A stretch of 63,882 nt of DNA, counting the filler, from Candidatus Woesearchaeota archaeon (GTDB lineage Archaea; Nanobdellota; Nanobdellia; Woesearchaeales; BM511), in assembly GCA_023266675.1 (NCBI GenBank). It is 6 parts of 6 records of this genome, joined end to end, with 100 filler letters (N's around TTAATTAATTAA, not from the genome) between each part and the next. Parts side by side here need not be neighbours in the genome. Positions count along the whole stretch, not along the records: positions 1 to 21,213 come from JAHFPP010000017.1; 5 more parts are not named here. One strand, given 5' to 3'. The notes below the pieces were generated by a model. It was not told the DNA's origin, made no database searches, and was given only the letters and a program-made list of their open reading frames with translations. The translations under genes were made by a program, and so were the position numbers. How positions within the stretch are numbered: the first letter of the stretch is position 1; every line of letters starts with the position of its first letter. Positions 1-17,521 of this stretch are shown in pieces.

Positions 1-1
1 T

Positions 2-343
2 GAAAAAAAGGATTTAAAAAGAATTGTTGCTGAGATAAAAGATTTAAAAAACAATGGTGAAGTATCAATACCAGTATTTTCTTCAGATAATTATGATGTA
101 CAAATTTTTAAGGTTGATGAAGCAAAAAGAAGTGTTTATAGTGGTTGTAATCTAAATTATTGCGCTTGTTTTAAAAAAAATTCATACACAATCTGTGAAA
201 CTTTTAATATTGATAAGAATGAATTTAACTTAGATAATGATAAAACTATTGTGGAATTTTTAGGTTCAGCTTCCACTAAAAGTTCAATAAAACTAATTAG
301 GAGCGGAAATAAAGCACCAGCAATAACTTTATCCAATATCTGA
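2..343 (+). CDS. Hypothetical protein, C-terminal part (5' truncated by window edge)
   Basis: Frame open from base 2 (EKKDLKRIVAEIK...CNLNYCAC...TLSNI) to TGA at 341-343; absent from the ORF track because it has no start. Confidence 0.6.
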   Translation, partial: EKKDLKRIVAEIKDLKNNGEVSIPVFSSDNYDVQIFKVDEAKRSVYSGCNLNYCACFKKNSYTICETFNIDKNEFNLDNDKTIVEFLGSASTKSSIKLIRSGNKAPAITLSNI

Positions 344-401
344 CTTTTCAGCAATATTTATATACAAAACCTTAATTCTTTTTCTTTGCTAACCTAATCT
401 A

Positions 402-500
402 TATTGACGGTATTGATATAATCTTTTAATAAAGGTTAATCAAAACATGGCGTATTCAGATAAAAAATCTGAACACACCTTAAAAGTATTGACGGTATTG
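402..500 (-). repeat. Hairpin repeat element (reverse orientation) flanked by a 14-bp direct repeat of the tRNA-His 5' end
   Basis: TATTGACGGTATTG at 402-415 and 487-500; reverse complement of the 71-bp insert resembles the units downstream of the tRNA. Confidence 0.75.
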
Positions 501-647
501 GTGTAATCTGGTTAGCACTGGGGACTGTGGAATAACTGGTTACGGTCAGTTAACACCCAATAGCGGGCGTAAACTCTGTTTAGCCCACTGAGAAATTAAT
601 TGATATGCAGATATCCCCAAGTCCGGGTTCAAATCCCGGGTACCGTC
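491..647 (+). tRNA. tRNA-His(GTG) with encoded G-1 and 82-nt intron at 37/38 (531-612)
   Basis: Acceptor GACGGTAT/GTACCGTC; anticodon arm GGGGA-CT-GTG-G^A-TCCCC; BHB helix CTGT/GCAG with GGA and ATA bulges; T-loop TTCAAAT. Confidence 0.93.
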
Positions 648-1046
648 CTTTTATTTTTAAGTGTGTTACGATGTTTTTAGTAACACGCTGTCTTTTACTT
701 AATTTTTTGTAAAAAATTAATGACAATCCCGGGTACCGTCCCATTTTCATTTTTCTAAGTGTATTACTGTGTTTTGAGTAATACGCTGTCTTTTAGTCAA
801 GGTTTTGTAAAACGTTGGTGACAATCCCGGGTACCGTCCCATTTTTACAAATCTTTCGCAATTTCCACAACAACAAGTTGTTGGGAGCAAATAATTTTAT
901 TATTTTGCTGTAAGCGAGATTAAGGACTATTTCTAAAAATGAAATAGTCCGAACTGTTTTTGCTCAAGCTTTTTCACAAGAAAACAAAGTTTTCTGTGCG
1001 CAGAAAATATTTATATTTTCTTGCGTTTAAAAAGGTTGGTACCGTC
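632..1046 (+). repeat. Array of three hairpin-rich units, each ending in a copy of the tRNA-His 3' end
   Basis: AATCCCGGGTACCGTCC at 632-648, 725-741 and 823-839; GGTACCGTC at 1038-1046; shared GTGT(G/A)TTAC..GTAA(C/T)ACGC hairpin in units 1-2 and TTTT..AA..TTTT..AAAA..TT end motif in all three. Confidence 0.85.
975..1026 (+). repeat. Double-hairpin mini-element copy 1 (CACAAGAAAAC..GTTTTCTGTGCGCAGAAAAT..ATTTTCTTGCGT)
   Basis: Near-identical copies at 17434-17490 and 37327-37382 with variable loops. Confidence 0.85.
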
Positions 1047-1197
1047 ACATTTTTATTTATTATATTTTTTTAAGAACTATTTTTTTTCTTTTACTTACTA
1101 AACTAAATATATTCGAAGAGATTTATAAAAAAATTAAAAATATTTTTTATAAAATGTGCGAGAATTTCTGTGTCTTATAATTTTTCTAAATAAAAAA

Positions 1198-2772
1198 CTA
1201 TTCAAAATCATCTATGTATTCTTCTGTTTTCTCACTATCTTCTTTTTTAGAATCTTTGTTTAATATAACACGCTTCATCTTTTTCTTTGTATTGTAATCA
1301 TATGTCACTTTTACTGGTTTTAATGTGTATGGATTGAGTCCTGTGTAGTACATGCATGTTGAAACACTCATAGGTGTTGGTGTGAAAAGCTGAAAGCTGT
1401 CAGCGTCTAGCGATTCCATTCCTTTTTTTAATGCTTCAATTTTTTCCATTCTGTCGCCCGGATGCCCTATCATGAAGTAGTATGCCAACGATTGCTTCTT
1501 ATCCTTGTTTATGGATTTGTAATACTCAACAAATTCCTTGAATTTTCTCCCGGGCTTATTCATTAGTGCAAGGACTTCTTCATCCATGTGTTCAGGCGCA
1601 ACTTTTAGCCGTCCTGAGACGTGATATTTTGAAAGTTCATCAATGTATTCTTTGGAATTAAGCGCTAAGTCATATCTTATTCCGCTACGCACAAATATTT
1701 TTTTTATTCCGTTTATTTTTCTAGCTTCACGCATTAAGTGAATAACTCTTTTATGGGATACATCAATTTTTCCATTTTCAAAATCCATCCCGTACATATT
1801 TGCGGATGGACCTCCCATATCTTCAATATAACCATTAAATCCAGGAAGCTTTGTTATTTTTTTTATTTCATCAAGTATATTCTTTTCGCTTCTTGAAACA
1901 ATCTTGTCACCTTGCGTCAGCGTAATTGAACAAAAACTGCATCTCCCTAAACATCCTCTATGGGTCACAACCGAAAATCTTGCCATTTTAAGTAGAGAAT
2001 CCTTATTTAATTTTCTAGTGTAGGGAAGCGAGTATATCCAGTCCAAATCCTTTGAAGTGTATAATGGCGCTTTGTACTGCAAAACATAATTATTGTCATA
2101 TTCCTGCGCAAGGTTTTTGTTGTTTGAAAACATTCTTTGCATAATGCAGAATTTTATTTTGTCTTCACTTGCCTCTTTAAAGCTTGGAAGAATTTCAAAC
2201 GATGAATCAACTTCTTTTGACAAAACACATGTCCCGGCGATTCCTTTCAATTCTTTGTTATGCCTTACTCTATCTACAATTTCAGCAATTTGTTTTTCGC
2301 CTGAGCCATAAACAATTATATCCGCACGTGAATCCAAGAGTATTGATTTTCTTAGTGAATTACTCCAATAATCATAATGCAAAAAACGCCTAAGCGCAGC
2401 CTCTGTGCCTCCAATTACTATCGGAATTTTTGCATTCTTAAAATTCTCCTTAATCTTGTTGCAGTAAACTATAACTGCCCTGTCAGGCATTGCAAGAGTC
2501 TTGCTGTATTTGTCCTCGCCTCTTTTTTTCTTTAAAGGTGTATAATTGTTCACCATTGAGTCTATTGAGCCTGAAGTTACAGCAAAAAACATTTTTGGGT
2601 GTCCAAGCTTTAAAAAATCCTCATTTTTCAAAGGTTTTTCAATAATTCCTACAGAGCATCCTTTGTCTTCAAGCACTCTAGCTATTACACCAGCAGGTGA
2701 TAGCGGGTGGTCGTCATAGTATTCACCTGTTATCAGGATTACATCAAAATCTTTACCTTCTTTTGAAATCAT
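1198..2772 (-). CDS. ygiQ: YgiQ/UPF0313 family radical SAM protein
   Basis: DVILITGEYYDDHP, SGSIDSMVNNYT, MPDRAV, HRGCLGRCSFC (CxxxCxxC), DMGGPSANMYG, RSGIRYD, LKVAPEH. Confidence 0.9.
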   Translation of the reverse strand: MISKEGKDFDVILITGEYYDDHPLSPAGVIARVLEDKGCSVGIIEKPLKNEDFLKLGHPKMFFAVTSGSIDSMVNNYTPLKKKRGEDKYSKTLAMPDRAVIVYCNKIKENFKNAKIPIVIGGTEAALRRFLHYDYWSNSLRKSILLDSRADIIVYGSGEKQIAEIVDRVRHNKELKGIAGTCVLSKEVDSSFEILPSFKEASEDKIKFCIMQRMFSNNKNLAQEYDNNYVLQYKAPLYTSKDLDWIYSLPYTRKLNKDSLLKMARFSVVTHRGCLGRCSFCSITLTQGDKIVSRSEKNILDEIKKITKLPGFNGYIEDMGGPSANMYGMDFENGKIDVSHKRVIHLMREARKINGIKKIFVRSGIRYDLALNSKEYIDELSKYHVSGRLKVAPEHMDEEVLALMNKPGRKFKEFVEYYKSINKDKKQSLAYYFMIGHPGDRMEKIEALKKGMESLDADSFQLFTPTPMSVSTCMYYTGLNPYTLKPVKVTYDYNTKKKMKRVILNKDSKKEDSEKTEEYIDDFE

Positions 2773-2815
2773 TTAGTGAAGAGGCAGTATATTATTTAAG
2801 AATTTGATGTTTTTA

Positions 2816-2948
2816 GGTAGTATTGAAAAGTTAACCGTCTGTGCAATAAATTGCATTATTTACAGAGTAAATAACTGCAATGCCAGACGTAATCGAACGA
2901 ACTTATCAAAGTGAGTGAGATGCAGTAGGGTAACTTTTCAATAACGCC
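2816..2948. mobile_element. 133-bp MITE-like element with 21-bp imperfect TIRs and 8-bp TSD
   Basis: TIRs GGTAGTATTGAAAAGTTAACC (2816-2836) and GGGTAACTTTTCAATAACGCC (2928-2948); TGTTTTTA at 2808-2815 and 2949-2956. Confidence 0.8.
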
Positions 2949-2994
2949 TGTTTTTAGCAATATTTATAAATAACTAAGGCAATTAAATCGTTAG

Positions 2995-3387
2995 GTGAGT
3001 TTTATGGATGTAAAAAAAGAGGATATTTCATCATCATTGGCCAAGATAGGTAAAGTCTCGTTTATAATTGGAATCACGCTTTCAGTTCTTTCAGGATTAT
3101 ATATGGGGTACACTGGAGAAAGTCTTAGCACTTTTGTTCTCTCACTATTAATCTTAATAGGATTAATAATAGGGTTAATTAACGTTACACCAAAAGAAAC
3201 ACTTCCATTCATATTCTCAGTAATATCAATTTTCTTAGTCATGGCTTACGGCGGAAATTTTCTAAAAACAATTGATGTCTTTGGAATGTACATTGACGGC
3301 ATTGTAAGGGCGATGATGATAATGTTCATACCTTCAATGATAATTGTTGCATTAAAAACAATATGGGATTATGCAGTCGACGTATAG
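2995..3387 (+). CDS. Small membrane protein (~4 TM), unknown function
   Basis: Hydrophobic segments, GLIIGLINVTPKE motif; TTTATAAA box upstream. Confidence 0.75.
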   Translation: MSFMDVKKEDISSSLAKIGKVSFIIGITLSVLSGLYMGYTGESLSTFVLSLLILIGLIIGLINVTPKETLPFIFSVISIFLVMAYGGNFLKTIDVFGMYIDGIVRAMMIMFIPSMIIVALKTIWDYAVDV

Positions 3388-7775: not shown

Positions 7776-8234
7776 ATGGTTAGAGAAAGAATAAATACGG
7801 ATACTGGTTTTTATTTTGTTGATGATAATAAAAATAATAAGAATTTAGTAAATAAAAAAAATGAAAAAGACACAAGAAAACTTTTCCCATGGTTAATACC
7901 TATAATAAATAGTTATGATGAATTAACTATTTATCTACAGCAATATAATTCTACTAAAAAAGATTTAATAATACCTACATTAATAAACTATTCAAAATCG
8001 CTTAAAAAAACTCAAAAAGAAAAAAATTCAGATGAAACTGTTCATAATGAAATAATTAAGTTATTAAATACTTTAGAAGAAATGAATAATAAACATGCGG
8101 ATAACGAATTTCTAAGAGCAGATATAAATAAAATAATAAAAGAATTTGATTGGGAACTATCAGGTACACAATATCAAGAAAAATATATAACTAAAGTTAG
8201 AGAGTTAATAGAAAAAACTAATTTTAGATTATAA
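7776..8234 (+). CDS. Hypothetical protein (very AT-rich, helical)
   Basis: 152-aa ORF with TATA-like box upstream; no recognised motif. Confidence 0.6.
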   Translation: MVRERINTDTGFYFVDDNKNNKNLVNKKNEKDTRKLFPWLIPIINSYDELTIYLQQYNSTKKDLIIPTLINYSKSLKKTQKEKNSDETVHNEIIKLLNTLEEMNNKHADNEFLRADINKIIKEFDWELSGTQYQEKYITKVRELIEKTNFRL

Positions 8235-17298: not shown

Positions 17299-17386
17299 GC
17301 CCTTGTAGCATAGTAGCTATTGCGGCTGATTCGTATATGAAATTCGAGAAATCAGCAGGTCAGGAGTGCAACTCTCCTCAAGGGCT
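17299..17386 (+). tRNA. tRNA-Thr(CGT) with 15-nt intron at 37/38 (17336-17350)
   Basis: GCCCTTG/CAAGGGC acceptor, GCTGA-TT-CGT-A^A-TCAGC, BHB TTCG/CGAG; T-loop variant TGCAACT. Confidence 0.88.
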
Positions 17387-17521
17387 TATTTTATAAATTT
17401 CTTTTTTGAAATTTGTTATATTTTTGCTCAAGCCACAAGAAAACATTTTTGTTTTCTGTGCGCAGAAAATCTTTTCTGATTTTCTTGCGTTTTTCTCAAA
17501 AAGGTTGCTCCTCAAGGGCTT
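17374..17521 (+). repeat. Repeat element with nested double-hairpin, flanked by 14-bp duplication of the tRNA-Thr 3' end
   Basis: CTCCTCAAGGGCTT at 17374-17387 and 17508-17521; TTTTTGCTCAAGC[insert 17434-17490]TTTTCTCAAAAAGGTTG. Confidence 0.85.

Follow-up and report, generated by a model that had tools for sequence, protein, structure and literature searches.

Elements moved by tyrosine integrases use attachment (att) sites in the T-loops of tRNA genes or in the ends of protein genes and carry a surrogate gene end, and their non-autonomous derivatives are the cis-mobilizable elements (CIMEs). Repetitive extragenic palindromes (REP/REPIN-RAYT systems) and the palindrome-associated transposable elements (PATEs) of IS200/IS605 are not known to make a flanking duplication. 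Casposons are large, encode Cas1 and a polymerase, and have a duplication of fixed length, reportedly of 14-15 bp at tRNA 3' ends, and the bulge-helix-bulge tRNA introns of Thermoproteales are said, in work of Fujishima et al. 2010, to transpose. The closest paper to the case described here, in the parts of it that were available, models tRNA fragments and intron gain as the result of an integrating element (Sugahara et al. 2012; PMC3293823). We analyzed a stretch of 63,882 nucleotides (the window) from Candidatus Woesearchaeota archaeon, positions 1-21,213 of which are contig C52 of a Woesearchaeota-type genome (G000; 1.22 Mb in 83 contigs, 34% G+C, 95.9% complete). In this contig the tRNA-His gene is flanked by four small inserts, one upstream and reversed and three downstream, and all four belong to a modular family of non-coding repeats, structured as single strands, in Woesearchaeota-type DPANN archaea. 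A first reading of the DNA (the sequence-only reading) had proposed that the family is undescribed, and in agreement with this no account of it was found in a full-text literature search, with supplements outside the search. A 2026 preprint on Nanobdellota does not mention the family in the passages found.

Each insert has the intact tRNA end on one side and, on the other, a short duplicate of that end (14-23, 17, 17, and 9 nt). Upstream, TATTGACGGTATTG occurs exactly at 402-415 and 487-500 and grows to 23 nt at 91% identity, so that the leftover 5' end (402-424, plus strand, with 2 mismatches) comprises 4 nt of the leader, G-1, and positions 1-18. The associated insert, U0 (416-486), is on the minus strand with its left end toward the intact tRNA 5' end; read on that strand it consists of a T-rich start, a hairpin P1 (449-479), a linker, and a tail hairpin P2 (421-448). 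Downstream, the tRNA's own segment from the T-loop to the 3' end, a 17-mer (AATCCCGGGTACCGTCC) at 632-648, recurs exactly at 725-741 and 823-839, and a fourth copy of 9 nt (GGTACCGTC) at 1038-1046 precedes a T-rich trailer; four of the five occurrences of GGTACCGTC in the genome are at this locus. These copies separate three inserts on the plus strand: U1 (649-724; T-rich start, P1 at 660-689, linker, P2 at 699-720, and a TGAC end), U2 (742-822; P1 at 758-787, linker, P2 at 797-818, and a GTGAC end), and U3 (840-1037). U1 and U2 are 85% identical over 94 nt (654-747 versus 752-845). The full-length composite U3 (fold -52.5 kcal/mol, z -5.8) has paired termini (850-856 with 1031-1037), a head with two inserted hairpins (863-886 and 889-905), an A-type P1 (924-950) followed by the linker, and two B hairpins lodged in the tail loop (975-998 and 999-1025).

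The arms were delimited by repeat search and the inserts by repeats, predicted folds, and, for U2, a profile of the tail. Together they bear out the layout proposed by the sequence-only reading, with four related inserts, the upstream one reversed, and duplicated tRNA ends of 14, 17, 17, and 9 nt. The possibility of a mis-assembly is countered over most parts of the array: a Logan contig, independent and from the source sample, agrees with 301-912 at every position and a second one reproduces 979-1400, while the dispersed repeat at 912-979 is bridged by no single independent contig. A 30-nt direct repeat of 70% identity, at 375-404 and 1079-1108, brackets the whole complex and may be due to chance in such A+T-rich sequence. 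Both distal copies of the 17-mer (725-744 and 823-842) continue as ...GTCCCA, like a mature CCA end, where the gene has ...GTCC-TTTT. The same contrast between distal copy and gene is seen at the tRNA-His (L003) of a second genome, G001, from a different genus of the same family; the pattern is inverted at a tRNA on contig C30 and missing at other tRNAs.

The order of parts within a unit is a T-rich start, TAAG with the variable hairpin P1, the linker (C/G)TGTTTTG, and the palindromic tail TCAAGCTTTT..AAAAGGTTG forming P2. Full-length copies also possess a hairpin in the head, H1 (AACYGGTTAYGSTCRGTTRACRC), and have 7-8-nt ends, AAYCnTTT and AAAGGTT, that are paired in the U3 fold; U0-U2 are without the head, and some copies, U3 among them, hold two B hairpins inside the P2 loop. 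The units measure 45-200 nt and contain no open reading frames (ORFs). The expectation that other copies exist was confirmed: BLAST of 841-1060 returned 32 alignments over 19 contigs, C52 included, and an nhmmer profile of linker plus tail, which replaced a loose regular expression with 148 mostly spurious matches, identified 28 copies in G000, a lower bound for tail-bearing units, with P1 directly upstream of the tail in 25 of them. In a search of window positions 1-3000 against the Rfam covariance models (E up to 1), only the tRNA was matched and the inserts hit no curated RNA family.

The structure of the element is under selection and strand-specific. Among 19 copies, P1 is paired in 92.5% of cells compared with 71.9% after shuffling (0 of 500 shuffles as high), controls with a slid partner pair in 33-43%, and both sides change in 8 of the 11 pairs. 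P2 pairs also change together, with pair 1 being CG in 14 copies, GC in 6, and TA in 1, pair 4 AT in 17, GC in 5, and GT in 3, and pair 5 CG in 17 and TA in 5; the covariation of the stems noted at the tRNA-His locus thus holds for the family. Pair 3 of P1 is U.G in 17 of 19 copies, where the other strand would have a C.A mismatch, and 20 of 26 copies conserve a G.G mismatch in P2. Folding energies for U0, U1, and U2 are -22.9, -16.0, and -18.3 kcal/mol on the forward strand versus -15.6, -11.6, and -10.2 kcal/mol on the reverse strand (forward z-scores of -6.7 for U0 and -3.8 for U1). From the stronger forward folds, the U.G pair, and the G.G mismatch we infer that the element works in single-stranded form, as RNA or as DNA.

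In being small, multi-copy, intergenic, and hairpin-defined, with structure conserved more than sequence and with conserved mismatches that suggest single-strand recognition, the family resembles REP/REPIN and PATEs. Unlike these, it has gene-end arms, with flank repeats at 8 of the 28 G000 copies and at 10 of 16 copies elsewhere, and G000 has neither a Y1 HUH (PF01797, 0 matches) nor a TnpB match.

A preference for tRNA termini, as proposed by the sequence-only reading, is evident as an enrichment: tail matches lie within 250 nt of 9 of 31 tRNA loci, although such flanks make up 1.5% of the genome. Exact terminus repeats of at least 14 nt were found at 5 of 32 tRNA loci, with repeats at both ends of tRNA-His, at the 5' end of a tRNA-Val on C49 (18 nt, reversed element), at the tRNA on C30 (17 nt), at a tRNA-Arg on C11 (14 and 17 nt in tandem), and at a second tRNA of the window (C52:17299; 14 nt); a tRNA-Lys on C76 has an imperfect one. 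The preference is not exclusive: copies are also located at protein-gene ends and starts, at 5S rRNA, and near ribosome-binding sites, and one module is inside the tRNA-His intron. In G000, copies with flanking repeats away from tRNA termini are at the ORF ends C1:11900, C66:10312, and C44:21487 and in one tRNA-Ser trailer, and in other genomes repeat-flanked copies were seen at the ends of an alaS-like and a ferredoxin-like gene, at 5S rRNA and tRNAs, and where an opposite-strand gene starts. By crude ORF calls, 27 of the 28 tails lie outside ORFs of at least 90 aa.

In shuffling tests, 12 of the 28 G000 copies reached p~0, eight of these representing target repeats and four tandem element heads, and in other genomes the flank repeats of 10 of 16 tails did so. 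When the whole genome was searched by 12-mers for remote partners of the ends of tRNAs, the conserved T- and D-loops swamped the result and left it uninformative. Tandem arrays of element plus arm were seen at L072, L073, and C62 and as U1-U2 at tRNA-His, and the same gene ends were occupied across genomes: a ferredoxin-like C-end at L022 and L072 and an alaS-like end at L013 and L021. Wherever a leftover copy was present among the cases examined, the T-rich end of the element pointed toward the intact gene end and the tail toward the leftover copy; this arrangement accounts for the inverted orientation of the copy at the 5' end of tRNA-His. The choice of archaeal tRNA 3' ends and some protein genes as sites, with the gene end duplicated, is shared with casposons as far as described in the parts available of Beguin et al. 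2016 (PMC5137440). Unlike in casposons, the repeats range from 9 to 62 nt and are allele-like, and no Cas1 match (PF01867) was found in G000.

The flanking copies look like alleles rather than fresh duplications made by staggered cuts. In addition to varying between 9 and 62 nt, they are imperfect at protein genes. At locus L076, the 62-nt fragment beside the tail has its own ATG, differs from the intact gene by 14 mismatches, and encodes MTLDYQKLGFKCGIEIHQQ where the gene encodes MTIDYNQIGFKCGIEIHQQ; seven of the changed codons are synonymous and four non-synonymous, and all six changes within GFKCGIEIHQQ are synonymous. At C1:11900, GTT CGT is found against GTA AGG, both coding for Val-Arg, and L013 has five synonymous and no non-synonymous changes. 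The ferredoxin-like end, read by eye, is MIKEEK* in the gene and MVKEEK* in the fragment, with three lysine/glutamate codons changing synonymously and the stop being TAG in the gene versus TAA in the fragment. In nine arm pairs pooled, 25 changed codons were synonymous and 11 non-synonymous, a small tally that departs from an expectation of 40% for one selected and one decaying copy (binomial p = 3e-4), the expectation being a rough model of our own. Such a bias would be expected of two functional alleles set next to each other, and we conclude from it that until recently the leftover copy served as the end of a functioning gene, in the same or another genome. Being up to 62 nt long, imperfect, and biased toward synonymous differences, the flank repeats are probably not target-site duplications made by a transposase, and the variable-length target duplications of the sequence-only reading did not hold up in this form.

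The same observations bear on an origin like that of MITEs (miniature transposable elements with inverted repeats), in which a transposase acting in trans would make staggered cuts, preferentially at tRNA termini, and the repeats would be true target-site duplications of variable length. We consider this unlikely. The arms at tRNAs do suit such an origin in being perfect and in beginning at the same T-loop position (AATC) in tRNA-His of both G000 and G001 and at C30 and C11, as do the short terminal inverted repeats of the full-length copies (AAYCnTTT/AAAGGTT), which pair in the fold, and the dispersed, by crude ORF calls intergenic, placement of the elements. A MITE would nevertheless be expected to have a target-site duplication of fixed length, which is absent here; most differences between arms at protein genes are synonymous and one arm has its own start codon, and two differences from the tRNA are common to both arms at C11. 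No parent element was found among the families searched, with 0 matches in G000 to Y1_Tnp (PF01797), TnpB zinc-ribbon, DDE_Tnp_1, and Cas1 (PF01867), other transposase families not being searched.

We favor, with a confidence slightly short of even, a non-autonomous element that brings along a surrogate gene end and is integrated through recombination. The unit would travel with one gene-end copy serving as surrogate end or homology arm, probably as a small single-stranded or circular molecule, and would recombine where the corresponding gene end lies in its own or a related genome. A Campbell-type event of this kind would leave an intact gene, the element, and a leftover fragment, such that the gene survives and two end alleles stand side by side, and repeated events or unequal crossing-over between the arms could build tandem arrays like that behind tRNA-His. 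The candidate recombinase would be one of the two tyrosine recombinases of G000 or the host recombination machinery. The T-rich start is probably a terminator of the preceding gene and, when reversed, may act as a promoter element rich in A/T. Plausibly, tRNA processing would remove the inserts; no sequence from the metatranscriptome of the same sample covers the stretch.

The surrogate-end element shares much with integrase elements and CIMEs: the insert lies between an intact gene and a leftover fragment, with a partial direct repeat that restores the gene, the block of identity extends from the T-loop to the 3' end, the arms are imperfect and allele-like, elements accrete in tandem, and the same gene is targeted in different genomes. 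There are also differences. The hairpin units of 45-200 nt are without cargo or integrase, one scaffold is found at many different targets, and the conserved parts are strand-specific hairpins instead of double-stranded arm sites, with reversed copies at 5' ends.

Several observations weigh against integration by means of a surrogate end. Sixteen of the 28 G000 copies are without a significant flank repeat of a target, and three tails (C18, C46, and C73) adjoin a complete tRNA 5' end with no fragment. The arms at tRNA-His are identical, and this locus alone cannot tell an arm from a target-site duplication. The argument from codons is limited by the size of the tally and the roughness of the expectation, and two of the nine arm pairs (L022 and C44) were read by eye, the automatic alignment being spurious in AT-rich sequence. 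At L076, the divergence of 23% over 62 nt is too high for ordinary homologous recombination, so either a homology-independent enzyme is required or the divergence arose otherwise. No circle junction, excision joint, or intermediate was seen in the contigs of the source sample. A double-stranded circle of 75-200 nt is physically awkward, and the model gives no account of how an element would gain a new arm.

The two tyrosine recombinases of G000 are a XerA-like protein encoded on C57 and a 417-aa protein on C73 (2900-4153), the latter 535 nt downstream of a tRNA. The element motif flanks neither of them, and there is no ORF between an element head and tail in the genome; with the null result for Y1 transposases, the sequence-only reading's suggestion of a TnpA/RAYT, reverse transcriptase, or integrase gene within the same motif found no match. 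The recombinases also matter to the view that the inserts are remnants of larger plasmids or viruses, brought into the tRNA by a tyrosine integrase and later emptied of their interior, so that just the sequence adjacent to attL and attR would be left. An identity block from the T-loop to the tRNA 3' end would fit, as integrase att sites reportedly have such a block (Williams, in 2002), and so would the presence of two tyrosine recombinases, one of them close to a tRNA. The model of Sugahara and colleagues, in the parts available, also connects an integrating element with tRNA fragments and with the gain of introns. We nevertheless regard scars as very improbable: deletions occurring independently would not yield one and the same P1-linker-P2 spacing 25 times over, many different genes serve as targets, the tRNA beside the 417-aa recombinase has no partner repeat on its contig or elsewhere in the genome, and the tail pattern had 0 matches in 2.9 million viral contigs.

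The tRNA-His gene itself contains a part of the family. The gene for tRNA-His(GUG) (491-648, plus strand) was matched by Rfam RF00005 at 492-647 (plus strand, 37.8 bits, E 1e-05), the model counting 85 nt in the anticodon loop as inserted. Read from the sequence, it has an encoded G-1 at 491, exon 1 with the anticodon GTG at 491-530, an intron at the canonical 37/38 position (531-612), and exon 2 at 613-647 with a C at 648, and it is predicted to fold into a cloverleaf with a bulge-helix-bulge-like anticodon arm. ARAGORN made no call for this intron-bearing gene, and it is not among the 29 matches of the whole-genome Rfam tRNA pass. A search of the genome for H1 placed a head module inside the intron (534-560), followed by a P1-like hairpin; of the 11 H1 matches in G000, seven are in full elements, three in minis consisting of H1 plus a hairpin, and one in this intron. 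The three minis are located upstream of genes, and two are flanked by repeats of the ribosome-binding region. The intron H1 differs from that at C64:17386-17412 by one position in our own count of the two strings, and intergenic DNA of another genome, G023, contains a 90% copy of the first 40 nt of the intron. The H1 module supports kinship between the hairpin family and tRNA introns, and its presence in the tRNA-His intron suggests that element modules also seed such introns. The finding of related modules in tRNA introns and elsewhere, with tRNA genes as hot spots, is reminiscent of the introns of Thermoproteales; unlike those, most copies are outside tRNAs, have duplicated target ends, and are also found at protein genes and 5S rRNA.

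Two of the minis, of ~60 nt, are at C33:12839-12865 and C64:17386-17412, just 5' of genes and between direct AAAGGTGA repeats of the ribosome-binding region.

The intron opens the possibility of an RNA-level mobility, where modules excised and circularized as bulge-helix-bulge-type introns, or read-through transcripts with part of a gene end, would be copied to DNA and recombined, and the layout of tRNA, element, and 3' fragment would represent a stage on the way to a new tRNA intron. H1 is present in the tRNA-His intron of both G000 and G001, while distant relatives are without intron and inserts, and the strand-specific structure, with its U.G pairs, is on the strand copied by read-through transcription. 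The CCA contrast between distal copies and gene in the same two genomes points in this direction, and the UGAC at the tail end can, by eye, pair with UCA of the T-loop, leaving AAU as a 3-nt bulge before the T-stem. G000 also has one reverse transcriptase. That enzyme, however, best matches the defense family Drt2 (314.9 bits versus a cut-off of 390) and is on a separate 2.9-kb contig, and the CCA pattern is inverted at C30 and missing elsewhere. No convincing bulge-helix-bulge can be drawn around element plus arm at tRNA-His, where drawing by eye gave at most a partial motif for the flanking units, and copies at 5' ends would need antisense transcripts. On balance, we find an RNA-level origin quite unlikely.

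The reverse transcriptase (433 aa; C15:1-2863) is beside a D12-class (Dam-type) adenine methyltransferase, and behind it is a G+C-rich stretch of ~280 nt closed by 19-nt inverted repeats that may be its non-coding RNA.

Comparison with relatives showed both occupied and empty sites. G001 has the same tRNA-His layout, with a reversed U0-like element and 5' fragments upstream and, downstream, one element followed by a 17-mer that matches its own tRNA; the tRNA differs from that of G000 at the 1-72 pair, and its intron of 53 nt starts with H1. In two genomes of other families, G021 and G024, tRNA-His has neither intron nor inserts, providing the empty orthologous sites anticipated by the sequence-only reading. 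Metagenome-assembled genomes labeled Woesearchaeota contain the exact tail motif. The exact tail pattern was found in 3 of 201 genomes sampled from the order, belonging to three different families, at 10 loci in a species-level genome collection, and in 11 metagenome contigs; diverged tails exist elsewhere, for example in G001.

This distribution is informative about a purely local origin, in which the units would be immobile functional boundary modules (terminators, promoters, or hairpins for processing or protein binding) multiplied by local tandem duplication and gene conversion. The preservation of the tRNA-His layout between two genera is in line with such a role, as are the constant position at gene ends, the T-run behind P1, the tails directly adjoining three tRNA 5' ends, and the potential origin of U1 and U2 by local tandem duplication. 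The U-rich linker between two hairpins may also resemble an Sm-type site, which would point the same way. Yet the tRNA-His sites of G021 and G024 are empty, the exact tail is sporadic among genomes and occurs in different families, and only 9 of 31 tRNA loci have an element. Neither the allele-like arms nor the leftover gene fragments are explained by a local function, and we therefore judge immobile modules to be improbable.

The origin of archaeal tRNA introns, split genes, and scattered fragments is a long-standing open question, and many tRNA genes of DPANN genomes are missed by standard tools. The hairpin family provides dozens of dated, comparable events per genome, each consisting of an intact gene, an element, and a leftover allele, and these make it possible to test which way transfer runs, which enzyme acts, and how intergenic repeats are linked to tRNA introns. 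For annotation, leftover gene ends can pass for att scars or pseudogenes. In a bolder form of the surrogate-end reading, which we find doubtful but worth considering, the units would represent a new class of mobile DNA in DPANN archaea, protein-less, single-strand-structured homing modules that carry a surrogate gene end, which could be RNA-derived as the CCA pattern hints, move from genome to genome into the corresponding gene, donate terminators or promoters at gene boundaries, and, once inside a tRNA, become its introns. If true, the gain of introns by archaeal tRNAs and the fragmentation of genes would have a route open to direct observation.

Other candidate systems were rejected. C/D-box sRNAs were dropped for the absence of C or D boxes by eye, a TnpB omega-RNA with a guide for the absence of TnpB and because it would target itself, integron attC sites for their different AAC/GTT geometry, and a retroviral-type primer-binding site because it fails at non-tRNA targets. 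In the parts seen, papers on circular omega-RNAs (PMC12558985) and on C/D-box MITE-like elements (PMC6009581) describe other things.

Further unusual tRNA-like loci were noted. The second tRNA of the window (17299-17521), called 'Tyr(ata)' by ARAGORN, has an intron-like insert and the same layout as tRNA-His; the element behind it has B hairpins in the tail loop and the end AAAAAGGTTG, followed by the 14-nt copy of the tRNA 3' end at ~17508-17521. At C57:7703-8000, a tRNA with the anticodon loop TTTGATA (Ile-like) has an insert in the T-arm region and a copy of its anticodon-arm segment (ATGGTTTGATACGCCA) ~150 nt upstream, and the gene for the XerA-like recombinase starts right behind it. The string ACTGGACA(T/C)GCT(C/T)GCGTGAG is found directly behind element tails and also 5' of odd tRNA-like genes, there followed by a ATATATAAA box; sites of this type are C66:16780-16800, C9:9221-9240, C57:~7990-8010, and C13:8630-8660.

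Dense arrays of other repeats cover C3, C10, C68, and C74, with up to ~80 self-matches per site; many of them hold TCTTTTT(C/T)TTTGACCTATAA 5' of ORFs, and they are unrelated to the hairpin family. In the complete genome of a relative, G019, two B hairpin modules are found in opposite orientation 15 kb apart (C1:1159973-1160021 and 1174974-1175022), and this pair could bracket a larger element.

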